In this document: positions 2,104-35,592 of the stretch, piece by piece | Layout of the letters: each line of letters starts with the position of its first letter | How positions within the stretch are numbered: position 1 is the first letter of the stretch | DNA from: Patescibacteria group bacterium | GTDB taxonomy: Bacteria; Patescibacteriota; Minisyncoccia; Phycocordibacterales; Phycocordibacteraceae | DNA: 57,358 nt | Direction of reading: 5' to 3' | Assembly (NCBI GenBank): GCA_040388985.1 | Contig: JAZKAU010000001.1 | Location: 1 to 57,358 of the forward strand | The notes under the pieces: generated by a model | Told to the model about the DNA's origin: nothing | The model's input: only the letters and a program-made list of their open reading frames with translations | The model's database searches: none | Made by a program: the position numbers and the translations under genes

Positions 2104-2117
2104 GGTACACTTCTGAT

Positions 2118-4615: not shown

Positions 4616-5056
4616 GTGCTTATATGCTGCATTATCAAGCCGCCGAGCCTGGCATGGGACAGGTCCATCCAGTCATTCTTGAGACAAGCAGGAGTTCCGA
4701 TAGTCACGACTCGACCGCTTGTCTACACTGAGACTATGATCAAGACGCTCTATGATCATATGGACGTTGAAGCGCAATGGAACATCGCACAGAGATACGA
4801 GCACAAGCGCGGATGCGCGCTTCTGGCTGATTTTCCGAGTATCGATACCTGTATGAGACTTATCGGACGAGAGAGCGATCCGCGAGCATGCGCGCCGCAC
4901 ACTATACGCGCACGGTTCGGAAGTAAGACCGAGCCGGAGCACGTCGGAGAATGGCTGTGGTGGGAGAATGCTCTGCATCGCCCGGTCGATGAGCGGGAAC
5001 GGCTGCGCGATCTTGCGCTTATCTTTCCTGAATGCGCACGGGGCGCGGACGAATAG
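4616..5056 (+). CDS. Divergent nucleoside-diphosphate-kinase-like protein
   Basis: GTG start, 146 aa. Matches the NDK layout: CIIKP (cf. IIKP), LIGRESDPRACAPHTIRARFG (cf. LLGATNP..GTIRGDF), and NALHRPVD in place of NxxHGSD. Confidence 0.55.
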   Translation: MLICCIIKPPSLAWDRSIQSFLRQAGVPIVTTRPLVYTETMIKTLYDHMDVEAQWNIAQRYEHKRGCALLADFPSIDTCMRLIGRESDPRACAPHTIRARFGSKTEPEHVGEWLWWENALHRPVDERERLRDLALIFPECARGADE

Positions 5057-8398: not shown

Positions 8399-10846
8399 TT
8401 ATGATAGATAGCTTGCTGCCTCAAGCGGCGTAAGTTCATTTGCATCCTGACTCTCGGGAAGATATATACGCCGTAATCCTTTCTTAAGGAAGAGTCCTTG
8501 CTTCGATTTATATAAGGTGATCATCTTTCCGGTCTTCGGATGCGCTCCGACATCTCGCACGATCTCGACGCCGCGCGGCGGTTGCTTCGGAGTGTTAATG
8601 AGCGTGACTGCTTCCTCAAGCGTGATGGTATACGGGTCCTGTTTCTTTATCGAACGGAATTCGCCATCGTGGGCGACATAGGGGCCGAACCGCCCCGTGT
8701 TGGCCATGACAGGCTTTCCAGATGTCGGATGAAGTCCGAGCTCGCGGGGAAGCGAAAGATAGCGTACGGCGTCCGTAAGCGTCACGGTCGAAAGATCAGT
8801 ACCGGGCGGGATGCTCGCACGCTTTGCGTTGACTTTCGGTTTTTTGGGTTTCTTCGCCACTTTCTTCCGCGCAGTCTTTGCAGTCTTTTTCTTAATCGTG
8901 CCTTCCTCGGCTGTAGCTTCAGAGACTGGCTCTTCCTGTGCCGCTTCCTCCGGAAGCGGCATCTCTACGTATGGTCCGAAGCGCCCGGTGCGTATGAATA
9001 TGGGATACCCCGTGTCAGGATGCATGCCGAGCGGCTCGTCGCTCTTAAGCTCCGTACCGTCTTCCTGGCGCGCGCCTTCGCAGTCCGGGTAGCGCGTACA
9101 GCTCATAAAGATACCCGCGCGCCCGAGCTTGAATTCCATGGGCGCGCCGCATAGAGGGCATGGAAATTCCTCAGGCACGCTGCCGAGCGCCGTCGCCTTC
9201 GGAAGGGAGTCCTTGCTCGCGACTGCCTTCTCGAACGGTCCGTAAAAATCCTTCATGGTCGCGAGGTAGCCGCGCTCGCCTCGCGCTATCTCATCGAGCT
9301 CGTCCTCCATCTCAGCAGTAAAGGCATCCGAGATGTAGTCAGCGAAGTGTTCCTCAAGCCAGCCGGATACAACCATGCCGGTAGCGGTGGGCTTGAGGGT
9401 GCGCCCGTCCTTTACCGCGTATTCGCGGTCTTGGATGGTCTTCATGATGCTCGCGTACGTGGAAGGGCGCCCGATGCCGCGCTTCTCGAGTTCCTTGATG
9501 AGACCAGCTTCCGTGTAGCGGTTGGGCGGTTCGGTCTGCTTCTCGAGGCTTTCTAATTTCAGAAGGTCGAGCGGCTCGCCTAAAGCCAACTTCGGAAGCT
9601 CGACGTCCTCGCCTCGTGCGCGCGTGTCGCAGGCAAGCCAGCCTAGGAAAAGGACCCGAGAGCCAGTCGTACTGAAGACAGGGATATCCGCATCAGCCTG
9701 AGACTTGACGGTCGTACGTTCGACTTTTGCAGCTGCCATCTGGCTTGCAAGCGTACGGGTACGGATAAGCTCATAGAGCTGCGTCTCGTCCGGAGTTGCG
9801 CCCGCGCGCGCCTTTGCCGGATCGGTAGGGCGTACGGCTTCGTGAGCCTCCTGTGCGTTCTTGCTCTTGGTCGTATATGCGCGAACATGCGTATAGTCTT
9901 TGCCGAATTCCTTTTCGACAGTCTGCGCGATCTTCGCGATAGCTTCCTTAGCCAGGTTCACCGAGTCAGTACGCATGTAGGTGATGTGACCGGCTTCGTA
10001 CAGCTTCTGTGCCGCGCGCATGGTGCGGCTCGGAGAGAAGCCAAGTCTGGTGGAGCCTGCCTGTTGAAGGGTCGATGTCGTGAATGGAGGTTTCGGGTTG
10101 CGCTCTTCGCTGCGCGTCGCGACGTCTGCCACCTTCCAGGAAGCCTCGCGCCCGAGCGTGACGATACGCTCTGCTTCTGCAGGCGTCGCCGGCTGCTCGA
10201 CGCAGGTAGCAGGGAATTCTCCGCTAGCTGACACTCCTTTAGTTTTGAGGAGTGCGTCTAGCACGTAGTAGGTGACGGGAATGAACGCCTTAATCTCGCG
10301 TTCGCGCTCTGCGAGGATGCGCAGCGCCGGCGACTGCACGCGACCGGCTGAAAGCCCGTACCGCACCTTCTTCCAGATAAGTCCTGAAAGATCATATCCC
10401 ACAATGCGATCGAGCACGCGCCGAGCCTCCTGAGCCTGACGCAAGTCCTGATCGATGACACGCGGATGGGCGAGTGCTTCTTCCACCGCTGCCTTGGTGA
10501 TCTCATGGAAGACCACGCGTTTCGGCGCTTTGAGTCCCACAGCTTGCTGGATATGCCAGGCGATAGCTTCTCCTTCACGGTCGGGGTCGGTCGCAAGGAA
10601 TACCTCGGAGGCTTTCTCACTTGCGCGCTGTATCTTCTCGATGACGTCGCGCTTGTCGGGGCTTACGACGTAGCGGGGTACGAAGCCTTCTTCGATATCA
10701 ACCGCGTCCTTGTTCGACTTCGGAAGATCGCGCACGTGTCCCACGGAGGCAAGAACCTCGTAGCCCTCGCCGAGATATTGCTGAATGGTCCTCGCCTTTG
10801 CGGGCGACTCGACTATGAGCAGTTTCTTTCCTTTGGTGGATGCCAT
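8399..10846 (-). CDS. topA: DNA topoisomerase I
   Basis: Toprim N-terminus LLIVESPAKARTIQQYLG, then DPDREGEAIAWH, and C-terminal Cys4 zinc-ribbon repeats. ATG at 10846; the TTG-started ORF extends to 10858. Confidence 0.95.
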   Translation of the reverse strand: MASTKGKKLLIVESPAKARTIQQYLGEGYEVLASVGHVRDLPKSNKDAVDIEEGFVPRYVVSPDKRDVIEKIQRASEKASEVFLATDPDREGEAIAWHIQQAVGLKAPKRVVFHEITKAAVEEALAHPRVIDQDLRQAQEARRVLDRIVGYDLSGLIWKKVRYGLSAGRVQSPALRILAEREREIKAFIPVTYYVLDALLKTKGVSASGEFPATCVEQPATPAEAERIVTLGREASWKVADVATRSEERNPKPPFTTSTLQQAGSTRLGFSPSRTMRAAQKLYEAGHITYMRTDSVNLAKEAIAKIAQTVEKEFGKDYTHVRAYTTKSKNAQEAHEAVRPTDPAKARAGATPDETQLYELIRTRTLASQMAAAKVERTTVKSQADADIPVFSTTGSRVLFLGWLACDTRARGEDVELPKLALGEPLDLLKLESLEKQTEPPNRYTEAGLIKELEKRGIGRPSTYASIMKTIQDREYAVKDGRTLKPTATGMVVSGWLEEHFADYISDAFTAEMEDELDEIARGERGYLATMKDFYGPFEKAVASKDSLPKATALGSVPEEFPCPLCGAPMEFKLGRAGIFMSCTRYPDCEGARQEDGTELKSDEPLGMHPDTGYPIFIRTGRFGPYVEMPLPEEAAQEEPVSEATAEEGTIKKKTAKTARKKVAKKPKKPKVNAKRASIPPGTDLSTVTLTDAVRYLSLPRELGLHPTSGKPVMANTGRFGPYVAHDGEFRSIKKQDPYTITLEEAVTLINTPKQPPRGVEIVRDVGAHPKTGKMITLYKSKQGLFLKKGLRRIYLPESQDANELTPLEAASYLS

Positions 10847-16417: not shown

Positions 16418-16735
16418 TTACCTAAGCAGTAGATTCCCGGACGGATTGATAGTTTCGATATCGCCGAGGTCACGGGGAAGTATCTGGTAATTCGCTTGGA
16501 CGTAGCGCAGGTCGTGCCGAAGCTCGCGCGCGATATCTCTACGCTTTTCTTCACCCGCAGCGTTCGAAGCGTCAGTAGCGGTATCTTCCAGAAAGCCCAT
16601 TACGGTCGCGAGGAAGGCGAAGTAGTCGCCGGACCTGATATGAAAGTCGATATTCTTTGGCGAGTCCATCAACAAGCCTACCCTTTCAGTAATCAAATAC
16701 GTACGTGCCATATAAGTACATTGTAAGCGCTCCAC
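16418..16735 (-). CDS. Hypothetical protein
   Basis: Only an ORF, convergent with dnaX. No recognisable motif. An internal ATG at 16711 is an alternative start. Confidence 0.3.
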   Translation of the reverse strand: MERLQCTYMARTYLITERVGLLMDSPKNIDFHIRSGDYFAFLATVMGFLEDTATDASNAAGEEKRRDIARELRHDLRYVQANYQILPRDLGDIETINPSGNLLLR

Positions 16736-16905: not shown

Positions 16906-16976
16906 TGGGAGATCGTCTAATGGTAGGACAGCGGCCTTTGAAGCCGTGAATCTAGGTTCGATCCCTAGTCTCCCAG
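16906..16976 (+). tRNA. tRNA-Gln: tRNA-Gln (anticodon UUG)
   Basis: Acceptor TGGGAGA/TCTCCCA with a U1-A72 pair, anticodon stem GCGGC/GCCGT with loop CTTTGAA, T arm CTAGG-TTCGATC-CCTAG, discriminator G. Confidence 0.9.
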
Positions 16977-17140
16977 CAAATAAAGTGCGTGAGCAATTTT
17001 TTGCTGGGAGAAGTAAGCGTGGGGCGCTTACGGCTAGGGATCGAAGACCTTGTGAGCATTTTCTGAGTCCTCAAAGAAAATACACAAGGTGTACTGATCC
17101 TGTAAGGATCGAAGCGTAGTCGCGGCCCTAGTCTCCCAGC
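16977..17140 (+). repeat. tRNA-Gln-linked palindromic module
   Basis: A 12-bp hairpin pairs 16969-16980 with 17000-17011 and uses the acceptor 3' strand. A second hairpin is at 17013-17031. CTAGGGATCGAA (17034-17045) is the reverse complement of the tRNA T-loop and stem (16957-16968). An ~80-nt core follows. The 15-nt direct repeat CCCTAGTCTCCCAGC occurs at 16963-16977 and 17126-17140. Confidence 0.7.
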
Positions 17141-17193: not shown

Positions 17194-17499
17194 CTAGATC
17201 GGTACTTCCGGCTCGTTATCGAAGAGCTGAACCCAGCCGAAGAATGCGCGTTTTTCGAAACGATTATTCTTGGTCGTGCCGGACTTGACCCTAAGGTCGA
17301 GTGCATTGGGAATAATGCGCGCAGAATCGAGCGATACGAAATCGTCGCCGAATTGCCTTTGCGCCATCGCCCTGATTCGCGGAAGGAGCTCCTGAATCCG
17401 CTGATTGTCTGCTGGTGGGCTATCCCATGTCTCCGTCCTGATGAGATATCCAGAAGAACCGTCCTTCCGATTGCCATCGTACTCAACAACGATTTTCAT
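17194..17499 (-). CDS. Hypothetical protein (101 aa)
   Basis: The ATG at 17499 is preceded by GGAAGG. No recognisable domain. This is the first gene of the A+T-richer island. Confidence 0.5.
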   Translation of the reverse strand: MKIVVEYDGNRKDGSSGYLIRTETWDSPPADNQRIQELLPRIRAMAQRQFGDDFVSLDSARIIPNALDLRVKSGTTKNNRFEKRAFFGWVQLFDNEPEVPI

Positions 17500-17688
17500 G
17501 AGAACCCTTCCGATTTGAGAAACTAAGGATTCGAGCGAACCCAAGGACATAATACACTTTTGCTACTGCTTAGAAAGGTTCCAATATCGTCCCAGTACGG
17601 GTAGCCGTAGTTGAGATAACTACGGACATATAGGTTCCAACGTTGTCCCACACTGCCAGGCGGAATCGGAAATGGTACTGTAGACATA

Positions 17689-18366
17689 ATGAATACCCCA
17701 TCGATAGTTCCCTATACTGAACGGCTTACCTTGCTCGAATGCCGTCATGAATACGATGAGGTCTTTACCTATATATTCAAGCCAATGAATCCAGTCTCAT
17801 TCACGGCCGGAGAATACGCGCATGTCCGCCTGCTGAACCTTTCCGAAGACATACGGCGCGTACGCGAGTTCTCATTCGCATCTTCTCCGCAGGAATCGGA
17901 GGTCTGGTTTGCTGTCGATGGGAGATCGAAGAGCGAATATCAGCAGGCGTTGCGATCGCTTGCTCCTGGAGATGAGATCGAGATATTCAAGATAAAAGGG
18001 CACATGACCTGGCCGCCTCCCTCTCGTGATGTCGTGATGATCGCAAACGGAGTGGGTGCAGCACCATTCCGCTCGATGCTCCTGGACAAAGTTGAAAGGA
18101 ATCTCTCACTCACAACTACTCTTATAAGCGTGGCGCGGGAATCATTCCTGTATATGGATGAGTTCAGGAATCTTGCCGGAACGTATCTCCCGATACGGCG
18201 CGACCAGCTGGCCGAAACGCTTGAGGAGATTACGGACGAGCATCCGGGTGCTCACTACTGTGTCGCCGGTTCGAGCGATTTCGTACTAGACGTCGTACAG
18301 ACACTTTCAGACAAAGGCATCGTCCGAGTCGAGAGCGATGAATTCAAGGGTCTGCTTAGGGAATAA
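17689..18366 (+). CDS. FNR-like FAD/NAD(P)-binding oxidoreductase
   Basis: RxFS-type FAD motif (VREFSFASSP) and an NAD-binding glycine motif (MIANGVGAAPFRSML). Confidence 0.65.
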   Translation: MNTPSIVPYTERLTLLECRHEYDEVFTYIFKPMNPVSFTAGEYAHVRLLNLSEDIRRVREFSFASSPQESEVWFAVDGRSKSEYQQALRSLAPGDEIEIFKIKGHMTWPPPSRDVVMIANGVGAAPFRSMLLDKVERNLSLTTTLISVARESFLYMDEFRNLAGTYLPIRRDQLAETLEEITDEHPGAHYCVAGSSDFVLDVVQTLSDKGIVRVESDEFKGLLRE

Positions 18367-18458
18367 TAAATAGTGACTTACTCCGTTTCCGTAGAAAAGT
18401 TCCAACCTTGTCCCACACAGTCAGCGGGTCTTCAGTCGAATTAACTATACTTAAAAGT

Positions 18459-18797
18459 ATGATCTTTTCTTACTTCTTGGTCACGTATTCGCTTACCATT
18501 GTTCTTTCTAGAGTCTGGCTGTGGTTCGTGCCTCGACACGCACCACAGATCGGAAACTTTCAGTGGCACCACTGGATGACAGGCGTCCTCCTGATTGTCG
18601 TGTATCTTATATATCCAAATCTATTCTTACTTGCTATTGGTGCCGCATTGATTGTTGATCAGATTCCTCTGTTCTTTATCTTCAAAGGACTTAATTGGCC
18701 CGATGATTGTTGGAAAGAGTATCAATCAGTGTCTTCTACGATAGGGACTTTCCTCGTGTCTCTGATTGTTATGGTTGTATATTTATCAATAGCATAG
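18459..18797 (+). CDS. Hypothetical integral membrane protein (about 4 TM segments)
   Basis: Strongly hydrophobic 112-aa product. The ATG at 18459 is preferred, because the TTG at 18408 lies inside the intergenic motif. Confidence 0.55.
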   Translation: MIFSYFLVTYSLTIVLSRVWLWFVPRHAPQIGNFQWHHWMTGVLLIVVYLIYPNLFLLAIGAALIVDQIPLFFIFKGLNWPDDCWKEYQSVSSTIGTFLVSLIVMVVYLSIA

Positions 18798-18859
18798 CGA
18801 AGGAGAGTTCCAACCTTGTCCCACACTGCCAGCAAGTTAAATTTGATATACTTCTCAAC

Positions 18860-19405
18860 ATGAAAGTAATCCTGTTTGGTGACAGTATGCTTGCCCGATT
18901 CGGTAAAGAGCGTCTCCAAAAACTAGAATCAATGGTGCCGGAAGGTGATTTCTACAACTGTGCTACAGGCGGTTGGGATAGTAATGACTGCGCTATGAAG
19001 GCCCCATATATTGCATCCCTTAAGCCAGACGCGGTCGTCATCTCCGTAGGCACGAATGATGCCTCGCCTTGGAAACAAGTCCCGCTAGAGATTTTTAGAA
19101 ACAACCTATTGAACATTCGCGATAGCTTTAAGGATTCGAAAGTCATTTTCTTTCCACCACCTCCTGTCAACGAAGATAAACAAGCAGGTGAGTTGATAAG
19201 GAGCAACGAATTGATGCAGCAGTATTCCTCCGCTGTAAAAGATGTGTCTTCAAGTGCGGCTGTCGCGTGTATCGACTCGTGGGCAATATTTAGCTCACTT
19301 CTTGAACAAGGTCAGGACTACCATGTTGAGGATGGAGTACATCTCAACGATAATGGGAATGACCTGCTGACTGATCAGCTAGCGGAGGCGCTGAGTTCGA
19401 AATAG
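18860..19405 (+). CDS. SGNH/GDSL-family hydrolase
   Basis: Block I FGDSM, block III GTNDAS, block V DGVHLN. The ATG at 18860 is preferred over the ORF-track start at 18707. Confidence 0.8.
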   Translation: MKVILFGDSMLARFGKERLQKLESMVPEGDFYNCATGGWDSNDCAMKAPYIASLKPDAVVISVGTNDASPWKQVPLEIFRNNLLNIRDSFKDSKVIFFPPPPVNEDKQAGELIRSNELMQQYSSAVKDVSSSAAVACIDSWAIFSSLLEQGQDYHVEDGVHLNDNGNDLLTDQLAEALSSK

Positions 19406-19487
19406 GGTCCCACGTTGTCCCATACGGTAAGCAAACTGAATGTGCGTAAAATATTATTGAGCTTTAGGAAGTTGTATAATCGTACAT

Positions 19488-19916
19488 ATGACGACCCTAA
19501 ACCCTTGGATTAATTTTAATGGCAATGCTGAAGAAGCTTTTAATTTTTACAAGTCAGTCTTTGGCGGCGATTTCAAGAAGATAATCCGCCTCAAAGATCT
19601 TGCCAGTTCTGAGTTCCCGGTTTCGGAAGAAGACGCAAATAAGATACTGCAGATCGTCTTGCCCATAGGTGACTCGAATACATTAATCGGAAATGACGTA
19701 CCCAACTTCATGGGAAAGGTGAGTGAGAATGAGAACAGGAGTAAGGTCCACGTTGCGACCAGCAGCAAAGAAGAAGCTGAGAGGATATTCAACGGTCTTT
19801 CCGTGGGAGCAGATGTAGAGATGCCGATCGGTGAGAGTGCGTGGGGAACCTACTTCGCTATGTTCAGGGACGTGTACGGTATTGAATGGGTCATAGAATT
19901 TGATCCAAGTAACTAA
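19488..19916 (+). CDS. VOC (glyoxalase/PhnB-like) family protein
   Basis: The N-terminus NPWINFNGNAEEAFNFYKSVFGG and the C-terminal WGTYFAMFRDVYGIEW are typical of PhnB-like VOC proteins. Confidence 0.7.
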   Translation: MTTLNPWINFNGNAEEAFNFYKSVFGGDFKKIIRLKDLASSEFPVSEEDANKILQIVLPIGDSNTLIGNDVPNFMGKVSENENRSKVHVATSSKEEAERIFNGLSVGADVEMPIGESAWGTYFAMFRDVYGIEWVIEFDPSN

Positions 19917-19975
19917 GGTCACGCTTATTCCAATATCCTCCCGTGCTGCCGGCCAAGGATGCTAGGATAGGCGTA

Positions 19976-20800
19976 ATGATTGAAGCAATCCCACAGCCTC
20001 AGAAGGAAGAGAACGCTTCTCTGCCGTCTCTGGGAACGGTCGAGCAACTCCTCTCCGAGGAGTTGCGTGGAGCAGAACAAGATCTGGCAATAATAGGCGA
20101 ATCTTTGCGAGCATTTGCGAGGCTCGTAGAAGCAGAGCGTCCTGATGTTCTTGTCTTTCTTGACGTCAGTGTCCGTATCTTCGGTACTCCCTACCTGAAA
20201 TACTTTTCTGAGAGAATGGGAAGAGGTGCTCCCTCGATCCGCTTTTACAATGATCATAATTTGAAGGGCGCCTTTCTGGGATATACGCCTCTAGATCCTA
20301 TAGTTCAGAATGACTTCGAATCACTGAAGGGCAAGAAGGTATTCTTTGTTGACGAGACCTTTTCCGAAGGAAAAGGCGCGCTAGCACTGCTTGAAGCTTC
20401 GTCACGGGCTGGAATCGCGGCTCGCTATATTGCTCTTACTAAAGATCCTGAGCCTCCTTCAAGTAAGATCCTAAATGAGGAGGATGAGATTCTTGTTGAA
20501 CAAGATATAGAGGACGGGAATATTATTATTTACGATCATCCTATTCATAATCTTTTCTCTCGATACGGCAGCAGACTCTACGTTAAAGAGGAAGTGGAAG
20601 GCAAGACTCGTCCCATGCAGGTTTCTCGAGAGAAGGCGACGGCCGCTAGTAGTATCCCTCATGCAGATAGCTATAGTGTGCCCCCAGAAGGCATGTCGAG
20701 TGAAGAGTACCAATTAGCTGTTTCAGCGAAATTCGATGCTAGCGTTAGGGATTTGAAAGAAAAGATCTATCAAACACTTAAGGCTGAAGAGGGCGTATAA
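19976..20800 (+). CDS. Phosphoribosyltransferase-like protein
   Basis: PRPP-loop-like KKVFFVDETFSEGKG, preceded by VLVFLDVSVRIFGTPY. The call is weak. The ATG at 19976 is preferred, because the GTG at 19943 lies inside the intergenic motif. Confidence 0.45.
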   Translation: MIEAIPQPQKEENASLPSLGTVEQLLSEELRGAEQDLAIIGESLRAFARLVEAERPDVLVFLDVSVRIFGTPYLKYFSERMGRGAPSIRFYNDHNLKGAFLGYTPLDPIVQNDFESLKGKKVFFVDETFSEGKGALALLEASSRAGIAARYIALTKDPEPPSSKILNEEDEILVEQDIEDGNIIIYDHPIHNLFSRYGSRLYVKEEVEGKTRPMQVSREKATAASSIPHADSYSVPPEGMSSEEYQLAVSAKFDASVRDLKEKIYQTLKAEEGV

Positions 20801-20901
20801 CGGCTCCAGTATCGCCTGCACCCTAATTTGTCGAGGATAAACAGATCCGGCAATTCCGGACTACGAATGTACAGGGACAAGAATAGTGCTATCGTTTAGG
20901 C

Positions 20902-21648
20902 ATGGCTGAACCTCTTCCAGCGAACGCATTCTTTGATATAAATAAGCTTCCTTCTGAAAAAGGACTGCTTTTGTTCGGTCTTTCGATGAATAAGCTTTTC
21001 TTACGCCAGAGCCCCGAACACTGTGTAGAGGACATTCGACACTTTCACACAGCAAAAGTATCCAAGCCGCTTATCGGCCTGAATTTTATCTACAGTGAAT
21101 TCCTATATCTATACAGCGACAAGCCGGCCCCGGAGTTGAAAGACTCCTTTATGAACCAGATCATTAGTCACAAGAATGGCCTGCAGAATATTCTCGGAAA
21201 GAACAACCTGGATTTCCAGATTCAGCATGCCTTTAACTATATGGCGTGGGCCCAGCTATATGTCGGGACCAAAGACTTTAATCAGCTATTTGCGTCTTTG
21301 AAAAAAATATACGCCACAGACGAACTATTTCAGAGATACATCAAGGAAGACAGTGAGGCATACGGCAGAGAGATGGGAGACAATCAAGTGAATTTCTTTT
21401 TGGAAGAGATTCTCATGTTTCACCTGCTTACCAAGAACCAGGTGAAGCTTCCGAACGAATATATCGAAGGCCAGCAGAAGTGGATACTATACTGCTATCC
21501 TGGCCGTCCGCTCAAGAGTACCGTCTATATGTATCAACTGAATCCCTTTAAGCTCGATTGGAAGGATAACCCGTATCAGAACGCTCACTTTGATCTGGAA
21601 GCCAAGCAACTCATTGAATTTGATAGGGTAGATTTAGAGACCTACTAG
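20902..21648 (+). CDS. Hypothetical protein (248 aa); weak motif-level resemblance to cyclodipeptide synthases
   Basis: LLLFGLSMNKLF (aa 22-33), NFFLEEILMF (aa 164-173) and ILYCYPGRP (aa 195-203) fall at spacings reminiscent of the CDPS Ser / Tyr-x3-Glu / Tyr motifs. See the findings. Confidence 0.6.
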   Translation: MAEPLPANAFFDINKLPSEKGLLLFGLSMNKLFLRQSPEHCVEDIRHFHTAKVSKPLIGLNFIYSEFLYLYSDKPAPELKDSFMNQIISHKNGLQNILGKNNLDFQIQHAFNYMAWAQLYVGTKDFNQLFASLKKIYATDELFQRYIKEDSEAYGREMGDNQVNFFLEEILMFHLLTKNQVKLPNEYIEGQQKWILYCYPGRPLKSTVYMYQLNPFKLDWKDNPYQNAHFDLEAKQLIEFDRVDLETY

Positions 21649-21670: not shown

Positions 21671-22513
21671 ATGAAGAACTGGCTGGTAACCGGAGGAGAG
21701 GGATTCATCGGAGGAAGGATCGCTAGGGCGACGGGTGCGACGTTATACGACCTGAAATCGGCTAAGGATATTCTCGATACTCAGGAGCTGCTTCAGGCCT
21801 GTGGAGATGTCGACGGGATATTCCACTGCGCGGCCAAGATAAGCGTTCCTGAGAGCTTCCGAGAACCGGAGGAATATCACCTCCATAACGTTCAAGGTAC
21901 GGCGAGCGTTACCCGGGCCGCAAAAGCTAGGAATGCCAAGGTAGTCTTCTCTAGCAGCGCTGCGGTATATGGCGAATCTGATACGCCGGTCCGAGAAACA
22001 GATGCGCTTCACCCGATGTCGCCCTATGCGCAGAATAAGAAGGATGGTGAAGCGCTATTGAAGGAATCAGGAATTCCGTACGCTGTTCTGCGGTATTTCA
22101 ATGTGTACGGCCCTGGCCAATCTGCGGCCTATGCGGGAGTCATTACCATGTTCATTCATAGCGCGCTCAGGAATGAAGATCTTGTCATCTATGGCGACGG
22201 CACCCAGGTGCGCGACTTCGTATATGTCGACGACGTGGTCGCGGCTAATATAAGAGCGATGGAATCAGAGGGCATCTCAGGAGAGACCTTCAATATCGGA
22301 AGCGGAACGATGACTTCTATAGGGCAGCTCGCCGAAGAGATCATCAGGCTTACCGGTTCAGGATCCAGGATTACCTACAAGTCTGCGCGTGAAGGAGATA
22401 TCGTGTACTCCCAGGCTGACGTTTCAATGGCTACGAATATCCTGAATTGGAAGGCATCGGTATCGCTTACGGAAGGGTTGGAGCGAACGATCGAGTCATA
22501 TAGAGATGTGTAA
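21671..22513 (+). CDS. NAD-dependent epimerase/dehydratase (SDR family)
   Basis: VTGGEGFIGGRI Rossmann motif and a YxxxK motif (SPYAQNKKD). Confidence 0.85.
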   Translation: MKNWLVTGGEGFIGGRIARATGATLYDLKSAKDILDTQELLQACGDVDGIFHCAAKISVPESFREPEEYHLHNVQGTASVTRAAKARNAKVVFSSSAAVYGESDTPVRETDALHPMSPYAQNKKDGEALLKESGIPYAVLRYFNVYGPGQSAAYAGVITMFIHSALRNEDLVIYGDGTQVRDFVYVDDVVAANIRAMESEGISGETFNIGSGTMTSIGQLAEEIIRLTGSGSRITYKSAREGDIVYSQADVSMATNILNWKASVSLTEGLERTIESYRDV

Positions 22514-22609: not shown

Positions 22610-23059
22610 ATGAATAGGACCACCATATTCGTCATTCTTGTTCTGGTAGTCGTGCTGGCCTTTCTAGCCGTTTTCTATCTCAAACCATTATCCATCGCGG
22701 CGGGTACGGCCACGAGCACGGCGCCTGCAGCTCTACCTATCAAGACGACTACGGCAACGACTGCTACGACTTCGAGCGCCAATCTCGGCACGTATGCATA
22801 CGAATGCGACGAGCACGTGATATTCCTCATGACTCCGGCAGCTGATATGAGCACCCTGAAGATCGCGCCGCTTACAGGCGCCTATCCTCCTTCCAGCACG
22901 CTTATACGCAAGACATCTTCAAGCGGCGTGAGATATGAAGGTAAAGGAGTAATCTTTACGGCTCATGGCGAAACGGTGACGCTTGGTGAGGGTGACTCAG
23001 CTATCAATTGTTCTCCGGTGGGGAATCCAGATTCTGCTCCTTTCAACTTTGGCGACTAA
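22610..23059 (+). CDS. Membrane-anchored MliC-like (C-type lysozyme inhibitor-like) protein
   Basis: N-terminal TM segment, Thr/Ala-rich linker, then YECDEH..SGVRYEG..TLGEGDSAINCSP, which fits the MliC pattern of two Cys residues flanking SG-x-RY. Confidence 0.5.
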   Translation: MNRTTIFVILVLVVVLAFLAVFYLKPLSIAAGTATSTAPAALPIKTTTATTATTSSANLGTYAYECDEHVIFLMTPAADMSTLKIAPLTGAYPPSSTLIRKTSSSGVRYEGKGVIFTAHGETVTLGEGDSAINCSPVGNPDSAPFNFGD

Positions 23060-23237: not shown

Positions 23238-23436
23238 CCGGAGAGCTTTCTCGAAGTGATATTCCAAAGCGCGCGCAGGCAAGGTAGTATCTGCATATGC
23301 CCAGTAGGATAACTTCGAATCGATTTCTTTTTGCGCCATATTTTTATGGTGAGATATATTCTGTTATTTTAGCGCGACATAATTTAGCAGCCTGCCTCGA
23401 GAAATCAGGCGCAATTTGAAGTTATACTAACCGGGT

Positions 23437-24333
23437 ATGAATGCTGAGTCAGAGTTCCAAGTGCTTCTTTTCTATAAGTACGTGACGGTGGAAGACCCGG
23501 AAGCGCTTGCGGCGTGGGTCCGCACACGCGCGACAGGGCTCGGCCTTACCGGCCGGGTAATCATCGCCGAGGAGGGCGTAAATGCTACGCTTGAGGGAAC
23601 GGTTGAGGATACAGAATCTTTCATACAGGAATTTAAGAACGACGAGCGCTTCAGCGACATGTCAGTGAAGCGCAGTGGCGGTACCGGTACCTCATTCCCG
23701 AAGCTTTCAGTAAAGGTGCGTCCTGAGATAGTCGGTACGCGCTTCCCGAAGGAAACGGCAGACCCGCGCGTACGCACAGCGCCTCGTATCACAGCCGGGG
23801 AGCTACGGGCCAAGTACGAGAATCAGGAAGACTTCGTGGTCGTCGATATGCGTAACGACTACGAATACCGTTCGGGGCATTTCAAGGGCGCGATAAATCC
23901 GGAACTTGAAGCCTCGCGCGATCTTCCGCAGGCTCTGCCTAAGCTTGAACCATATAAGCACAAGAAGGTGATTACGGTGTGCACCGGCGGCATCCGCTGC
24001 GAGAAGATGTCGGCGTTCTTGCTGAGTCATGGGTTCGAGGACGTGGAGCAGCTGGAAGACGGCATACACGGCTATATGGAGAAATATCCGGGGCAAGATT
24101 TCGTCGGCACGCTCTATACCTTTGACCAACGACTTACGATGGACTTCGGCGGCGCGCGCGTAGTGGTGGGGCGTTGCTATCTCTGTGAGAATCCGACCGA
24201 GCTCTATGTGAACTGCGCAAACGACGCGTGTCACCTTCATTTCCTTGCCTGCGACGCGTGCCAGGAGGACACGGGTACGTTCTGTGGAGAGGCGTGCCGA
24301 AAGACAGCTCAAGCTATTCTTACCTATGGATAG
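23437..24333 (+). CDS. trhO: Rhodanese-domain tRNA uridine(34) hydroxylase (UPF0176/YceA family)
   Basis: LLFYKY..GRVIIAEEGVNATLEG, the rhodanese active-site loop CTGGIRCEK, and a C-terminal Cys cluster. Confidence 0.8.
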   Translation: MNAESEFQVLLFYKYVTVEDPEALAAWVRTRATGLGLTGRVIIAEEGVNATLEGTVEDTESFIQEFKNDERFSDMSVKRSGGTGTSFPKLSVKVRPEIVGTRFPKETADPRVRTAPRITAGELRAKYENQEDFVVVDMRNDYEYRSGHFKGAINPELEASRDLPQALPKLEPYKHKKVITVCTGGIRCEKMSAFLLSHGFEDVEQLEDGIHGYMEKYPGQDFVGTLYTFDQRLTMDFGGARVVVGRCYLCENPTELYVNCANDACHLHFLACDACQEDTGTFCGEACRKTAQAILTYG

Positions 24334-25548: not shown

Positions 25549-26304
25549 TCAAAGACCGAGCAGGTCAAGAAATGTCGCGAGTTCAGCGCCTTCTATAGAT
25601 CGGAGCTCGCTGGCTTTCAGACTACCCAGCTTGATATTCAGGATGCGCGTGCGCTTCAAGTCCACGACTTCGTTATGCATGGCGACGACCATGCGGCGGA
25701 TCTGATGCTTCTTGCCCTCGGTAAGGGTTATGGAAAAGCTGTTTTCACCACGGACTTCAACCTTTGCTGGCCTCGTGATGTAGCCCTCTATATCAACGCC
25801 TGCCTCCATGTGCTTTGCGAAGCTGTCGCGCAGCGGCAGCTTGGTGCGCACCAGATATTCCTTATCGTGCGCCTTATCAGGATTAAGAAGGCGATCGGTT
25901 ATGCGGCCATCGTTCGTAAGAATCATCAGGCCGTGCGAGCCTTTGTCGAGACGTCCCACCGGAAAGAGTCCCTCACCAGCCACTTCTTGCGGAAGATCGG
26001 GTCCTGCATCTGAATCGTCATCCTCAGAACCCTGGCGTTGCATCGTGATAGCGCCACGAGGCTTGTTGTACGCGTAGTACTTGTTCTGCTTCGGAGCATG
26101 CTTGCTCCCGCGTGCGCTTGCGCGCACCTCGACAATATCGCTTTCGAGTACCTTATCGCCGAGCCCTGCTACCCGGCCGTTAACTAACACACGCTCGCGC
26201 GCGATGAGCTCGTCAGCGTCGCGTCTCGTTGCGATACCTTTGCGCGCAAGATACTTATTGATGCGCATCGGATATTCGCTTTCTGGAGCAGTGCGTTCCT
26301 TCAT
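25549..26304 (-). CDS. Pseudouridine synthase, RsuA/RluB/RluE family, with an S4 domain
   Basis: The S4 domain begins MRINKYLARKGIATRRDADELI. The catalytic motif is FPVGRLDKGSHGLMILTNDG. An alternative start is the ATG at 26268. Confidence 0.85.
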   Translation of the reverse strand: MKERTAPESEYPMRINKYLARKGIATRRDADELIARERVLVNGRVAGLGDKVLESDIVEVRASARGSKHAPKQNKYYAYNKPRGAITMQRQGSEDDDSDAGPDLPQEVAGEGLFPVGRLDKGSHGLMILTNDGRITDRLLNPDKAHDKEYLVRTKLPLRDSFAKHMEAGVDIEGYITRPAKVEVRGENSFSITLTEGKKHQIRRMVVAMHNEVVDLKRTRILNIKLGSLKASELRSIEGAELATFLDLLGL

Positions 26305-26523
26305 CTGCGTAGTATAGCAGCGTGCTCACGAATTATTCATTTCGCGTTCGGTAGATTTTCAGAGTCAAGTGATAAGTATGTGCTGCGGCCTTCTTACCAA
26401 CTAGCATTCACCCCTATGTTGAAGAGCATCAAGTATGACCTCGTAATAGCCCTCCCGGCGCTCATGCTCGCGAGCATGGTCGGAGCGTTTACGGTAGCGC
26501 ATTCGTGATTCTATTAAGGCAGG

Positions 26524-26566: not shown

Positions 26567-26638
26567 ATCCGTCTGCTATACTCTTCATATACGCCGCGTT
26601 TGGGCTGTAAGGTCCTGCGTCAGCCTACGTCTCTATAT

Positions 26639-27139
26639 ATGGACCAAGACCGGATAAAAGCCGAATTCCTTGAAGCGTATGACCAGTACGCAGACGAGCT
26701 CTACCGTTTCTGTCTATTCAAGGTCTCAGACTCGGAACGAGCGCAGGACCTTACCCAGGACACCTTTACGCGCTTCTGGCAGACGCTGCGCAAAGACACG
26801 GTCGTCGAGAATCCTCGCGCCTTGCTCTTCATGATCGCGCGCAATCGCATCATCGACTGGTACCGCAAGAAGAAGGAGCAATCGCTCGACGTGCTCCAGG
26901 AAGCGGGACTCGATGTCACGGGAGAGGGCGCTGCTGATGTGGAGCAGCCGGCGCAAATGCGCGAAGCACTTGCCGCTATCGAATCGCTCGACGAGCCGTC
27001 CCGTGAAGTCCTCACCTTACGCTATGTAGAAGGATGGACGCCGGTCGAGATAGCGGCACTGCGTGGCGAATCAGCGAATGCCGTCTCCGTGCGCCTCAAC
27101 CGCGCCATCAAGAAGGTTCAAGACAAGATGCATATATGA
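26639..27139 (+). CDS. ECF-type RNA polymerase sigma-70 family factor
   Basis: Region 2 (DELYRFCLFKV..AQDLTQDTFTRFW) and region 4 (LTLRYVEGWTPVEIAALRGESANAVSVRLNRA). The start is set at MDQDRI. Confidence 0.85.
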   Translation: MDQDRIKAEFLEAYDQYADELYRFCLFKVSDSERAQDLTQDTFTRFWQTLRKDTVVENPRALLFMIARNRIIDWYRKKKEQSLDVLQEAGLDVTGEGAADVEQPAQMREALAAIESLDEPSREVLTLRYVEGWTPVEIAALRGESANAVSVRLNRAIKKVQDKMHI

Positions 27140-28185
27140 CCAAAACTCTGACTAAAACCGAACAAGAACTAGCCTACCTCCGCACCCTGCGTCTCCCTTC
27201 CGCCGCGCGTCTTCGCATGCGCGAAGAGTTATCCGCTTATGCTGACCTGCATGCGCGTCACGTAGGCGCGGAGCCCGCATACCGCAATTCGAAATACCTT
27301 TCATACTTCCCGGCAGGCTTCTGGCGCGTGTCAGCTGCCTTACTCATCCTCGTAGCCTCTCTCGGCGGTACGGCCTATGCCGCGAACGGTTCGCTTCCGG
27401 GGCAGCCGCTCTATCCGATTAAGATAAACGTTACGGAGCCGGTTGAGACCGCGCTTATCCCGAGCGCGTCCGGCAAAGCCGCCTGGCATGCCATCCTTGC
27501 AGAGCGGAGGCTCGACGAGGCGACGCAGCTTGCGGTAAAAGGAAGTCTTGACTCAGCAACGCAGCAATCGCTGAGTGATAATTTCAGCACGCACGTGCGC
27601 GACTCTATCGCCGCCGCTGACGAGCTACAGAAGGAAGGTGACGTAAACGGTGCACTCGCCGTCCGCTCAGACCTTGAAGCGCGTATCACCGCGCACGAGG
27701 ACATACTCGGCCTCGTTGCCGATCATCTTGCCGCCTCCGGCGCCGCGGACGCAACCTCGACTGAAGCCGTGCGCACCTTACTCACCGTCGTACACGATCG
27801 GCAGGATACCGTCGAGGGCGCGCGTCTGGCGCTCGAAGACTCGGAAGATGCAGCCAGCTCAAGGACTCCCGTATTTGCAAAGACAACTAGTGCTATGAAG
27901 GCTGACGATACGTCCGCGAAGCCGGCAATCATGCATTCCCCGCGAGAGATCACAAGAGAAGCGCGCACGCTCGAGATTGCGAGCATCCTGCGCAAGAACA
28001 GCGCGCTTATAAGCTTACTCGGCCCCGTCGGCACGAGCACGACAGCTACGTCGACCGCAACCTCCACTATTGAGACTGCTTCGAGCACCGTAGAGTCAGA
28101 TCAAGATATCGATGAGAACGCCGCACCTGATGGTGAGAATCTCAGGCAATCCTGGCCTACTTCTCAAGAAAACATAAAGAACTGA
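27136..28185 (+). CDS. Membrane-anchored anti-sigma-like protein
   Basis: ATGA overlap with the sigma gene stop. One TM segment (FWRVSAALLILVASLGGTAYAA), followed by a helical extracytoplasmic region. The role is inferred from position. Confidence 0.55.
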   Translation: MTKTLTKTEQELAYLRTLRLPSAARLRMREELSAYADLHARHVGAEPAYRNSKYLSYFPAGFWRVSAALLILVASLGGTAYAANGSLPGQPLYPIKINVTEPVETALIPSASGKAAWHAILAERRLDEATQLAVKGSLDSATQQSLSDNFSTHVRDSIAAADELQKEGDVNGALAVRSDLEARITAHEDILGLVADHLAASGAADATSTEAVRTLLTVVHDRQDTVEGARLALEDSEDAASSRTPVFAKTTSAMKADDTSAKPAIMHSPREITREARTLEIASILRKNSALISLLGPVGTSTTATSTATSTIETASSTVESDQDIDENAAPDGENLRQSWPTSQENIKN

Positions 28186-28244
28186 ATAGGTTTGTAAGAG
28201 TACTGCAAAGTACGTCTCAAAGCGCTTCCTGATACAATGACCCT

Positions 28245-29984
28245 ATGACGCAAGCGCACGCTCTTTCCATACTCGCGACCGGCGTGAATGTGTTCCTGAC
28301 CGGCGAGCCGGGAAGCGGCAAGACGCATACGGTAAATAGCTATGTCGCTTGGCTGCGCGCGCGTGGCATCGAGCCTGCCATTACCGCCTCCACCGGCATC
28401 GCCGCAACTCATATCCACGGCATGACCATCCATTCCTGGAGCGGCATCGGCATACGTGATTCGCTTTCTGAAGCGGATATCGATGCTATCGCGAGTAAGG
28501 AGCATGTCGCTCGCCGCATCCAGAAGACTACGACCCTTATCATCGACGAAGTCTCCATGCTCTCAGGCAGCGTCCTTGCCATGGTCGACGCGGTCTGCAG
28601 GGAGATCAAGCGCGTGGACGCAGCCTTCGGCGGCATCCAGATAGTGCTGGTGGGCGACTTCTTCCAGCTTCCGCCTATCGGCGCACGCGGCGGCGCGAAC
28701 GCCGCCTTCGCCTTCGAATCATCCGTCTGGGAAGACCTGCATCCGATCGTCTGCTATCTGACCGAGCAGCACCGTCAGGAGGATAGGCGATTCAGTTCCG
28801 TGCTCTCGAGCATACGCGCTGCGGACGCTGATCCCACGACCGTCTCTATCATCATGGGACGCGAGGCAGACATCGAAGGATTCGACGAGGACATTCCGCG
28901 ACTCTTTACGCATAACGCCGATGTCGATCGGTTGAATCAGGAGAAGTTAGAGAAATTAACGAGCGCAACAAAATCGTATCGTATGAGCGGAACGGGTGCA
29001 CCGCCTATGATAGAAGCGCTCAAGCGCGGCTGTCTTTCGCCCGAGGTGCTCGTCCTCAAGGAAGGGGCAGTGGTCATGGGTACGAAGAATATCCCAGCGC
29101 TGGGGCTTGCCAACGGTACGCTCGGCACGGTCATAGGCTTCGAGCGCGGTACGAACTATCCGATGATAGAGACGGCCGATGGGCGCACCATCACCGTGCC
29201 TGAAGCTGAGTGGGCAGTTGAGGAAGGTGGGAAGGCACGCGCCAAGATAGCTCAGATACCGCTTCGCCTAGCCTGGGCCATCACCGTGCATAAGAGCCAA
29301 GGCATGAGCATGGACGCGGCAGCCATCGATTTGTCCCGCGCTTTCGAATATGGACAGGGATACGTCGCGCTTTCGCGCGTACGCACGCTTGCAGGACTCC
29401 ACGTGCTCGGCTGGAGCGAGCACGCGCTTATCGTCCATCCGCTCGTCGCAAGCCGTGACGAGGGATTCCGAGAACTATCGGAAGAGGCGGAGAAAGGATT
29501 TGCAGCGCTTGAAGAGTCTGGAGAGCGATTGCAGCTTGAGAAAAATTTCGTACGTGCGTCCGGCGGGGAGTGGGAGGTGAGCAAGGCCACGGAAGGCAAG
29601 GCCGTACGGCCGCTTAAGAAAAAAGCAGTCGGAAGCACCTATGACGCGACGCTCGCACTTTTGAAGGAAGGAAAGTCTCTGAAAGAGGCCGCGCTTGCGC
29701 GCGGCCTCACCTTCGGCACCATCTGTACGCATGCAGAAAAGCTCGCGCAGGCAGGCACTGTCGGGCGCGATGTGCTCGAAGCCGCTATAGATGCACCGCT
29801 GCGCGCGAAGCTGCCCCAGATTCATGCGGCATTCAGCAAGCGGGGTGCCGCTGCGCTCACGCCAGTCTTCGAGATGCTTAACGGAGCCTTCACGTACGAC
29901 GAGCTCCGTCTCGCGCGTCTTGTCTATAGAGAAAAAGAATCATCCGCAGGGAAGCTCACGCAACCTTCAGCAGGAACACGGTAA
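28245..29984 (+). CDS. Pif1/RecD-like SF1 DNA helicase
   Basis: Walker A TGEPGSGKTH, then LIIDEVSML, VLVGDFFQLPPI, AITVHKSQG and YVALSRV. Confidence 0.85.
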   Translation: MTQAHALSILATGVNVFLTGEPGSGKTHTVNSYVAWLRARGIEPAITASTGIAATHIHGMTIHSWSGIGIRDSLSEADIDAIASKEHVARRIQKTTTLIIDEVSMLSGSVLAMVDAVCREIKRVDAAFGGIQIVLVGDFFQLPPIGARGGANAAFAFESSVWEDLHPIVCYLTEQHRQEDRRFSSVLSSIRAADADPTTVSIIMGREADIEGFDEDIPRLFTHNADVDRLNQEKLEKLTSATKSYRMSGTGAPPMIEALKRGCLSPEVLVLKEGAVVMGTKNIPALGLANGTLGTVIGFERGTNYPMIETADGRTITVPEAEWAVEEGGKARAKIAQIPLRLAWAITVHKSQGMSMDAAAIDLSRAFEYGQGYVALSRVRTLAGLHVLGWSEHALIVHPLVASRDEGFRELSEEAEKGFAALEESGERLQLEKNFVRASGGEWEVSKATEGKAVRPLKKKAVGSTYDATLALLKEGKSLKEAALARGLTFGTICTHAEKLAQAGTVGRDVLEAAIDAPLRAKLPQIHAAFSKRGAAALTPVFEMLNGAFTYDELRLARLVYREKESSAGKLTQPSAGTR

Positions 29985-31185: not shown

Positions 31186-31524
31186 ATGAAAATCTTCTAT
31201 CACTGGCTCGTATCGGCAATCGCTATCGGTATCGCCGCTTACATCCTTCCGGGCGTCACAATTACCATAGCCGGCGCGCTCGTGCTTGCGGTCGTGCTCG
31301 GCATCATCAACATCTTCATAAAGCCGATAGTGAAGCTGCTTACCCTGCCGCTGACCATAATTACGCTCGGCCTCTTCTCGCTCGTCATAAACGCGCTGCT
31401 CATCCTGCTTGCAGGAGCTGTCGTGCCGGGCTTCGTCGTCGCGGGCTTCTGGTCGGCCTTCCTCTTCGCCATCATCCTCTCGCTCATTAACGCCTTCTTC
31501 AACGCTATAGACGGGAAGGACTAG
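31186..31524 (+). CDS. Small 4-TM membrane protein of the holin-IV/DUF360-like type
   Basis: The sequence LVSAIAIGIAAYILPGV..FIKPIVKLLTLPLTIITLGLFSLVINALLI resembles the YvlD/holin family 4 pattern. Confidence 0.5.
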   Translation: MKIFYHWLVSAIAIGIAAYILPGVTITIAGALVLAVVLGIINIFIKPIVKLLTLPLTIITLGLFSLVINALLILLAGAVVPGFVVAGFWSAFLFAIILSLINAFFNAIDGKD

Positions 31525-31607
31525 TAGGGTATAGGTCCATCCCGGAAAGCCGTAGCTTAGTCAGGAGTTTTGCATGGGGACTATGCGTACGGCATACTAT
31601 ATAGGTT

Positions 31608-32726: not shown

Positions 32727-32780
32727 TATCACTCAGCATCTCGCGATTGCGGTTTCAGACAATTTGGTTAATTCATAGTC

Positions 32781-32829
32781 GTATATACCCACGGCTATGT
32801 TCTGAGTGAAGCCAGTACTGGGTATATAC
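32781..32829. promoter_or_regulatory. 11-bp inverted repeat 9 nt upstream of the ATPase start codon
   Basis: GTATATACCCA (32781-32791) pairs with TGGGTATATAC (32819-32829), with a 27-nt spacer. Confidence 0.35.
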
Positions 32830-32837
32830 TGTATCCA

Positions 32838-35588: not shown

Positions 35589-35592
35589 ATCT

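Follow-up and report, generated by a model that had tools for sequence, protein, structure and literature searches.

The attC recombination sites of integrons, 57-141 nt long, are imperfect inverted repeats; when folded they form a bulged hairpin, and it is their structure rather than their sequence that is conserved. In serine integrases the attP half-site measures about 25 bp, the motif for the zinc-ribbon domain lies 5 bp nearer to the centre in attB than in attP, and the canonical enzymes normally recombine only attP with attB (PMC3783163). Composite islands of the staphylococcal cassette chromosome (SCC/SCCmec) are divided into units by direct repeats of the integration-site sequence, which have the same orientation and occur in several variants, and some of the units carry no recombinase (PMC7029136). 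The tycheposons of Prochlorococcus form islands beside a specific tRNA, with partial tRNA copies between and beyond the elements, which are made of integration and replication modules plus cargo; most islands hold no element at a given time, and variation peaks next to the tRNA (bioRxiv 10.1101/2020.12.28.424599). Here we describe an island in a Patescibacteria group bacterium (GenBank assembly GCA_040388985.1, contig JAZKAU010000001.1, positions 1 to 57,358; this whole stretch of 57,358 bases is called the window). It lies beside a tRNA-Gln gene and consists mostly of small single genes punctuated by a 28-nt motif. From the comparison of sequences, this motif probably serves as attachment-site arm for large serine recombinases (LSRs) of one family, which are encoded on integrative elements of Patescibacteria together with a rolling-circle-type Rep, and the island was probably built by accretion at tRNA-Gln. 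Integrons serve as an analogy only, as their integrase and attC features are missing; the closest mechanism is that of the serine-integrase att sites and the closest architecture that of the SCC and tycheposon islands.

The consensus of the motif is GGTTCCAAC-N-TyGTCCCAsAC-N-GCCAGC. In the window it is present in six clear copies and a decayed one, all on the plus strand and between small genes. A search with a 26-mer consensus located 17634-17659, 18399-18424 and 18807-18832 with 0-2 mismatches and gave no match in 100 shuffles, and a looser core pattern and a position weight matrix (PWM) added 17577-17604, 19405-19432 and 19926-19953. With the 26-mer, the core pattern and the PWM no further copy was detected outside the array anywhere in the window. 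Copy 1 (17577-17604, GGTTCCAATATCGTCCCAGTACGGGTAG) has a diverged 3' third, and copy 2 (17633-17660, GGTTCCAACGTTGTCCCACACTGCCAGG) is identical at 26 of 28 positions to the arm that abuts the LSR gene in the related locus L045. Copies 3 (18398-18425) and 4 (18806-18833) match the 26-mer almost perfectly, copy 5 (19405-19432, GGGTCCCACGTTGTCCCATACGGTAAGC) overlaps the preceding stop codon by 1 nt and copy 6 (19926-19953, TATTCCAATATCCTCCCGTGCTGCCGGC) is degenerate. The resemblance of copy 7 (20802-20829, CGGCTCCAGTATCGCCTGCACCCTAATT) was read directly; because it stays under every PWM threshold and the likeness is only partial (CTCCAGTATCGCC), it is treated as a probably decayed copy. The first-pass annotation had counted seven copies in the same orientation, of which six were recovered by the searches, whereas the seventh did not hold as a clear copy. 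The distances that it gave between stop codons and motif agree within 1 nt with those measured here (in order about 31, 8, a 1-nt overlap, 9-10 and 1 nt). The hairpin that it had seen at 17605-17625 (plus strand, CCGTAGTT-GAGAT-AACTACGG), which separates copy 1 from copy 2 and has a stem of 8 bp, is present when the sequence is read directly. Similar hairpins are found in other arrays behind motif copies that precede a reversed unit, so this one may be what is left of an emptied unit.

When 185,579 species genomes were scanned for an exact 20-mer, eight loci were returned, six of them real, from Saccharibacteria, Paceibacterota, Patescibacteria-group and otherwise unclassified metagenome-assembled genomes (MAGs). 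A scan of metagenomes gave five more real loci, two of which repeat the sequence of L008. The 3' part ACnGCCAGC, which lies outside the search 20-mer, is conserved as well, and extra degenerate copies in the same orientation occur nearby. The window and 14 loci, 15 sources in all, provide 36 unique copies, across which the information content is high only from -5 to +28: conservation begins at -5 with an A-rich run and ends abruptly at +28, and the flanks are unrelated. At a PWM score of at least 17, 54 copies were detected in 335 kb of collected loci versus none in 20 shuffles of the window. In every locus with more than one copy all copies lie on one strand, with a median spacing of about 520 bp, and this polarity is constant even around reversed genes (on the minus strand of L030 at about 2120-2395, of L031 at 9041-9220 and of L005 at 4622-4915, and the open reading frame ORF118 in the window). 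The 28-nt form is nearly identical between Saccharibacteria and Paceibacterota genomes, whose own tRNA-Gln 3' ends differ from the motif and from each other. Decayed or internally deleted copies are seen in L032, in L035 and in copies 6 and 7 of the window. No real match to the motif was obtained in IMG/VR, where 13 matches to the 3' half all lacked the 5' half. A phage origin was rejected, as the attP junction is absent from IMG/VR, the phage LSRs that were recovered are only 28-36% identical and their loci are without the motif.

The syntenic locus in relatives was recovered via homologues of TrhO and DnaX (74-83% identity); all relatives studied are metagenome contigs. Synteny is conserved on both sides (topA-dprA-serS-dus-dnaX on the left; trhO-HD-rluB-extracytoplasmic function (ECF) sigma-PIF1 on the right), and tRNA-Gln heads the variable part in all relatives examined. 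The arrays begin 3' of this gene and in its orientation in the window, L030, L031, L032, L035, L036 and L041, and also in the Saccharibacteria MAG L005. Between the conserved flanks the relatives carry 0-11 motif copies and almost entirely different genes. L030 has 11 copies between genes for NUDIX, glyoxalase, methyltransferase, Ser_hydrolase and other proteins, while L035 has at least four copies, L031 two, L036 two (variants TGTTCGAAT...), L041 one, L032 decayed copies only and L037 none, each with different genes. Both refuting conditions that the first-pass annotation had set for its cassette array turned out in its favour: each relative examined has a different set of genes between the conserved flanks, and core genes lack the motif in their upstream regions, both in the window and across related loci that total about 330 kb. 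Because the motif is confined to the variable locus and the gene content differs among relatives, the locus is cassette-like. This part of the idea stands, but the mechanism comes closest to accretion at serine-integrase att sites and not to an integron.

Some units are common to two arrays and have different neighbours in each, namely the VOC unit of the window and L035 (74% identity) and the Ser_hydrolase unit of L030 and L032 (81%). For both, DNA homology starts either where the motif ends on its 3' side or with the promoter. A shared neighbouring gene as trans factor was rejected, since an all-against-all BLAST across the arrays found none, and the reversed small open reading frames (ORFs) that adjoin the motif encode unrelated proteins. 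No recombinase is present inside the complete arrays of L030, L031 and L032. Public assemblies break at or just inside the locus (L034 with its contig end at 11538, L033 with its contig end at 13115, and L002), in keeping with the repeats and the variation between strains at the array.

The tRNA-Gln(TTG) gene of the window (16906-16977, plus strand) was identified with ARAGORN and Rfam. The island begins directly 3' of it with the array co-oriented downstream, and has a GC content of 46-47% against 55-59% in the surroundings; all motif copies lie inside. The 3' end of this tRNA (16955-16977) reads GGTTCGATCCCTAGTCTCCCAGC, and the identical tRNA 3' end is joined to an LSR element in L033. Just past the gene there is an inverted partial copy of the tRNA 3' end (16997-17050, minus strand, GCTGGGAGA ... 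CTAGGGATCGAAG; read directly, inverted repeats I21 and I22), the first part of which also forms a hairpin 3' of tRNA-Gln. A direct repeat of the last 15 nt follows at 17126-17140 (plus strand, CCCTAGTCTCCCAGC; repeat D17) and would be a displaced attB-type remnant; the sequence 3' of it is also conserved behind the equivalent fragment in L030. Direct and inverted fragments of the tRNA-Gln 3' end thus placed just past the tRNA are found at 16978-17140 in the window, 430-474 in L030 and 8407-8450 in L031, and the L030 fragment (453-474 within it) matches the tRNA end of the window and not the tRNA of L030 itself. Such a mismatch is the classic trace of an integration in which the 3' end of a tRNA is replaced.

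In several relatives the recombinase itself is present. L033, with 82% DnaX identity, encodes a 490-aa LSR that abuts the tRNA-Gln 3' end, and L045 encodes an LSR as a full-length ORF of 503 aa with all three LSR domains (Resolvase, Recombinase and zinc ribbon); the family is widespread in Paceibacterota. The LSR belongs to a conserved element module composed of a 288-aa protein, an 80-aa protein, a Rep (Viral_Rep and RNA_helicase) and the LSR, followed by variable cargo. The 3' end of the LSR gene (atttcYgaaaaagtagggttta...) meets four partners at one nucleotide, ...CAGC/ATTTC. In L033 the junction is ...GGTTCGATCCCTAGTCTCCCAGC/atttctgaaaaagtaggg with tRNA-Gln(TTG) as partner, ending in ...TCTCCCAGC; in L043 it is ...GGTTCGAGTCCTAGTCTCGCAGC/atttctgaaaaag with tRNA-Gln(CTG), ending in ...TCTCGCAGC; in L047 it is ...GATTCGATCCCTATTCTGCCAGC/atttcttgaaaag with a tRNA-Gln-like remnant; and in L045/L046 it is GGTTCCAACGTTGTCCCACTCTGCCAGC/atttccgaaaaag with the 28-nt motif itself, ending in ...CTGCCAGC. 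The LSR reading frame crosses the junction. The far end of the elements is marked by variants of the motif (AGTTCTAACGTCGACCCAGACTGCCAGC), beyond which lie single-gene units that each end in a copy, and L030, whose array has no LSR, also contains this AGTTCTAACGTCGACCCAGACTGCCAGC variant twice. The only long interval between copies, 6,281 bp, corresponds to the LSR element in L045.

Arrays with an LSR are those of L043, L045 and L047, and arrays without one are those of the window, L030 and L035. A tblastn search of the window with all proteins of the L045 element showed that unit 6 of the window (g6) and one of the cargo genes of this element share 82% identity over 248 aa, with the homology confined to the ORF. 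The linked recombinase for which the first-pass annotation had proposed to look is therefore found in relatives, where the LSR abuts the motif in L045/L046, but not in the window, for which that annotation had already stated that there is no integrase: domain searches of all window ORFs detected no integrase or recombinase domain, Phage_integrase included.

Counted back from the junction, 11-12 of the first 14 nucleotides are the same in the tRNA end and in the motif. At a greater distance both contain GGTTC(N)A(N)C, which spans -23 to -15 in the tRNA and -28 to -20 in the motif and so lies exactly 5 bp further out in the latter. Because the distal motif is shifted by 5 bp, as in serine-integrase half-sites, the tRNA-Gln 3' end is best assigned as a putative attB-type arm and the 28-nt motif as a putative attP-type arm. 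Copies of 28 nt with the canonical T-loop GTTCGAAT in L036 and L043 bridge the tRNA and the motif forms. The locus thus resembles the att sites of Listeria phage A118/LI, phiC31 and Bxb1 in having a recombinase with Resolvase, Recombinase and zinc-ribbon domains, a precise element boundary and an arm of about 25-28 bp, and in that host and element arms share the proximal sequence with the distal motif displaced by 5 bp (PMC3783163 for the known sites; sequence geometry for those described here). The LSR gene stands at the end of the element in L033, L043, L045/L046 and L047, though not in the window, and the boundary falls at one nucleotide in four independent contexts. Serine-integrase sites have two similar inverted half-sites around a central dinucleotide, whereas here one arm is conserved. 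In addition, a tRNA gene here supplies the host arm with its 3' end, arms of the element type stand in long co-oriented arrays between single genes, and the element carries a CRESS-like Rep in place of phage genes.

The starting point for a mechanism is a repeat family with sharp edges and fixed polarity, linked to tRNA-Gln in a hypervariable locus, with an LSR junction common to tRNA and motif, distal motif copies and shared cargo; from these we infer that the LSR binds and recombines the motif and how the arrays are built. The elements would target the tRNA-Gln 3' end as attB-type arm. The element circle would carry an attP composed of the motif and the LSR 3' end, and integration would bring the recombinase end of the element up against the tRNA end, while the motif copy that belongs to the element would remain at its opposite end and point in the same direction as the tRNA. 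If such rounds are repeated and the LSR/Rep module is lost or excised in an alternative way, rows of cargo genes separated by motif copies could result. Because no LSR is present in the window or in the complete arrays of L030, L031 and L032, the enzyme must act in trans or be gone. The best reading of the window is accordingly that of an LSR-less accretion island resembling an SCC composite, with the tRNA-Gln, remnants of the tRNA end and at least six single-gene units punctuated by the motif.

Both the SCC composites and this locus show insertion at the 3' end of one conserved gene, large serine recombinases, co-oriented repeats of the site and units without recombinase. In contrast to SCC, the target is tRNA-Gln instead of rlmH/orfX, the repeat is a 28-nt attP-like sequence instead of the 18-nt integration site sequence (ISS), most units consist of one gene (0.3-1.2 kb) with a leaderless promoter of its own, and the host belongs to the Patescibacteria. 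With the tycheposon islands the locus has in common the conserved position at a specific tRNA, the partial tRNA copies, elements that combine integration and replication modules with cargo, the absence of an element from most islands at any one time and the peak of variation beside the tRNA. Tycheposons, however, mostly use tyrosine recombinases and their repeats are true partial tRNAs (bioRxiv 10.1101/2020.12.28.424599), whereas here a distinct 28-nt variant, conserved across phylum-level lineages, punctuates single genes and the enzyme is an LSR.

Several observations weigh against this explanation. The tblastn search with all L045 element proteins detected neither an LSR gene nor an LSR/Rep remnant in the window, and a P' arm is absent there as well. 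The local alignment between motif and tRNA-Gln is only moderately significant by shuffling, with p between 0.000 and 0.64 according to which tRNA and which motif variant are compared. No conserved sequence lies to the right of the motif in the 36 copies and on inspection the LSR-side arm does not mirror the motif, so that the usual pseudo-palindromic layout of serine-integrase sites with two half-sites does not appear to be present. Because canonical serine integrases recombine only attP with attB, simple repeated integration at one tRNA is by itself insufficient to produce rows of single genes without recombinase remnants. The joint of motif and LSR in L045 can be read as an intact attP, as the joint of a tandem integration or as an insertion into an array copy. 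Finally, contigs from the source sample contained no recombination product, circle or strain-level presence/absence variant; apparent joints in these contigs were rejected as multi-mapping of other motif copies or as arrays of other organisms.

A stronger form of this cassette-like view is an active, dedicated capture platform like an integron, in which single-gene cassettes are individually excised as circles and inserted at motif copies by the LSR in trans or by another enzyme, so that the array would be no mere leftover of whole elements that integrated and decayed. We regard this as unlikely. It would account well for the strikingly regular arrangement of one gene per unit with its median spacing, for the minimal promoter of each forward unit and for the good preservation of motif copies in arrays without recombinase, as well as for homologous units with different neighbours whose homology ends at or near the motif or the ORF ends, and for the recurrence of one motif variant in different genomes. 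However, a circular cassette would need a conserved second arm 3' of the motif, which is missing, serine integrases are normally limited to attP and attB (PMC3783163), and neither circular nor empty-site forms are seen in the source-sample contigs. Moreover, some adjacent units have no motif between them (g6 and g7 in the window, Ser_hydrolase and LexA in L030). The likeness to integrons extends to mostly single-gene, co-oriented units with a repeat of the recombination site just past the stop codon, varying content, occasional reversed cassettes and typical cassette functions (VOC/glyoxalase, NUDIX, hydrolases and small unknown proteins). Unlike integrons, the locus lacks both attI and an IntI tyrosine integrase, its divergent ORF of 118 aa matches no family, the site is a sequence-conserved asymmetric 28-mer and not a folded attC, the units have promoters of their own, and the linked enzyme, a serine recombinase, belongs to a separate mobile element. 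A broader proposal, integron-analogous capture by a serine recombinase in Patescibacteria, with self-promoted leaderless single-gene cassettes that are each bounded by one 28-nt attP-type half-site and are captured, shuffled and swapped across phylum-level lineages at tRNA-Gln by an LSR that LSR/Rep elements provide in trans and for which one conserved arm is enough, is put forward only tentatively and is itself doubtful. That the copies are instead inert relics without present function, decayed fragments of the tRNA-Gln 3' end from past integrations, is very unlikely. True tRNA-Gln 3' fragments do lie in the same loci (17126-17140 in the window, 453-474 in L030), and decayed or internally deleted copies such as those of L032, L035 and copies 6-7 of the window would fit. 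Against this, Saccharibacteria and Paceibacterota with differing tRNA-Gln 3' ends have nearly the same 28-nt form, always with a spacing longer by 5 nt, its conservation is sharp-edged between unrelated flanks, and it abuts a full-length 503-aa LSR ORF in L045.

The first-pass annotation had offered a shared operator, a promoter or an RNA 3' element as alternatives to the cassettes, and register, orientation, distribution and folding all speak against them. As operator or promoter, the motif would let a regulator or an alternative sigma factor co-regulate the island genes, and it does stand upstream of every forward gene, is directly abutted in several arrays by a conserved -35/-10 promoter of reversed genes, and lies 6 kb from an ECF sigma factor gene. 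Its distance to the -10 box, however, has no fixed register (10-43 nt in the window, about 4-21 nt in L030), its orientation tracks the array rather than the gene, with one copy between convergent genes in L005, and all core-gene upstream regions examined are without it. The few exact matches in two very large collections are too few for a lineage-wide regulatory site, and the motif is contiguous, asymmetric and devoid of dyad symmetry, all of which makes regulation highly improbable. A sigma-70, ECF or sigma-54 promoter was rejected on the variable -10 spacing and on a consensus scan that gave no more matches than shuffles. We see next to no chance that the motif acts in RNA, as 3' untranslated region, terminator or processing signal, or is a classical integron attC folded as a single strand, even though it starts 0-31 nt past stop codons and hairpins follow some copies elsewhere. 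It folds no better than shuffles on either strand (z = 0.05 to 1.27), and Rfam matches no family to it, finding only the tRNA even at E <= 10; a hairpin, attC site or terminator was therefore rejected, in line with the earlier statement that the motif is no attC-like hairpin. The array orientation is also kept when the neighbouring gene is reversed, copies without a co-oriented upstream gene exist (window copies 1-2, L010 3793), the 28 nt contain no inverted R''/R' boxes, unlike attC sites of 57-141 nt, and no tyrosine integrase is nearby. Two further candidates were discarded, a translated extension past the stop codon because of inconsistent frame offset and a dif/Xer-like or hix-like dyad site for want of arm symmetry on inspection.

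The forward genes of the array have a TAnnnT box, often with a preceding TGn, 6-7 nt before the ATG and no Shine-Dalgarno sequence. Each of them thus appears to carry its own minimal promoter (extended -10 box, 6-7 nt, ATG) for a leaderless transcript, in the usual layout of the host. Among the 41 genes of the window leaderless-type starts dominate, with TAnnnT 5-8 nt before the start codon in 18 of them compared with 4% of random positions; a Shine-Dalgarno-like sequence precedes only six. Many -10 boxes of the window are preceded by TGn (extended -10), and leaderless-type examples lie at 23415-23439, 25549-26330 (minus strand) and 28220-28247. Reversed units have in common a stretch of about 30 nt, CTAGACAAAACnTACCAyAyGTTGCAAAAA, directly 5' of the motif (L030 1082-1131, 2393-2442 and 800-849; L031 9226-9275; L010 3821-3870, minus strand; L032 12830-12872). 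Its reverse complement, TTGCAA-N18-TAGnAA followed by AGGAGG and ATG, reads as a promoter for the reversed genes. The small proteins driven by it are unrelated to each other, and their units carry a hairpin after the preceding motif copy.

In the window the reversed unit is ORF118 (17194-17550, minus strand, 118 aa, no family match), which lies between the tRNA remnants and copy 1. The following genes are all on the plus strand. Unit 1 (17689-18366, 225 aa) gives weak sub-threshold matches to NAD_binding_1/DmmA-like families and has TACTGT 7 nt before its ATG. Unit 2 (18459-18797) encodes a hydrophobic 112-aa protein without family match and unit 3 (18860-19405) an SGNH/GDSL hydrolase of 181 aa (Lipase_GDSL_2, 6e-16), each with TATACT 7 nt before the ATG. 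Unit 4 (19488-19916) encodes a VOC/PhnB-like protein of 142 aa with 3-dmu-9_3-mt and Glyoxalase matches, the one with 74% identity to an array unit of L035, and unit 5 (19976-20800, 274 aa, TAGGAT 7 nt before ATG) has no Pfam match. Neither has unit 6, the g6 related to the cargo gene of the L045 LSR/Rep element (20902-21648, 248 aa). Unit 7 (g7, 21671-22513), an NAD-dependent epimerase/dehydratase without a motif between it and g6, is the last low-GC gene of the island. The right-hand boundary of the variable region is a 149-aa gene (22610-23059) that stands beside trhO in relatives, with 46-50% identity in L030, L031 and L032. Of the earlier gene labels, SGNH and VOC are borne out by these domain matches, whereas 'FNR-like' for unit 1 reaches sub-threshold values only (E = 0.004-0.005) and 'PRTase-like' for unit 5 has no Pfam support. 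The alternative starts inside the motif, TTG 18408 and GTG 19943, are probably artefacts as had been suggested, with ATG 18459 and ATG 19976 each 7 nt after a TAnnnT box.

The LSR/Rep elements of relatives have cargo that looks defence- or addiction-like, namely an HTH protein, a ThsB-type TIR protein and a SLATT/DUF4231 protein at 5465-7858 of L043, a PIN-domain pair at 7040-7835 of L047 and, at 7145-7645 of L045, a protein with a TnsA-like endonuclease domain that is 89% identical between L043 and L045.

Around the island the window is a chromosomal segment of a Paceibacterota/Parcubacteria-like genome that comes from the metagenome of a watershed, with core genes that include topA, dprA, serS, dus, dnaX, uvrABC, ddl and genes like those of type IV secretion systems (T4SS). 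A gene of about 97 aa without family match (16418-16735, minus strand) overlaps the dnaX 3' end in antisense and is kept before tRNA-Gln in every relative examined. Two proteins with T4SS_pilin domain are encoded at the left end of the window (458-3089). At 31186-39627 a holin-like protein, a 916-aa DUF87/TraG-like ATPase and a 1,360-aa protein without family match form a cluster; because it is conserved in relatives, it is probably a core secretion or DNA-transfer apparatus and not part of the island. The ECF sigma factor gene is followed by one for a DUF5667 protein (26600-28185), likely its anti-sigma partner; the pair adjoins the PIF1-type helicase in all relatives and has no motif copy upstream.

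A survey of the literature on integrons, cassettes, leaderless promoters and serine recombinases in Patescibacteria and Saccharibacteria turned up no description of the motif, of the LSR/Rep elements or of such arrays, which is not proof of novelty. Patescibacteria, also known as CPR (candidate phyla radiation), have very small genomes and their gene exchange is little understood. The stretch described here is most likely a gene-collecting hotspot beside a tRNA gene, and it points to a concrete mechanism with a tRNA-Gln landing site, a family of recombinase/Rep elements and a regular single-gene array punctuated by an attachment-site arm. The 28-nt sequence is common to Saccharibacteria and Paceibacterota, and therefore the units or their carrier elements would be exchanged across deep lineages. 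The motif array would also explain the assembly breaks at the locus, and the motif offers a simple marker for the flexible gene pool in CPR metagenome bins. Should a single conserved arm suffice for the recombinase, or recombinase-less units be mobilised by it, the known abilities of serine integrases would be extended, and natural attP/attB pairs with clear half-site geometry would be at hand.

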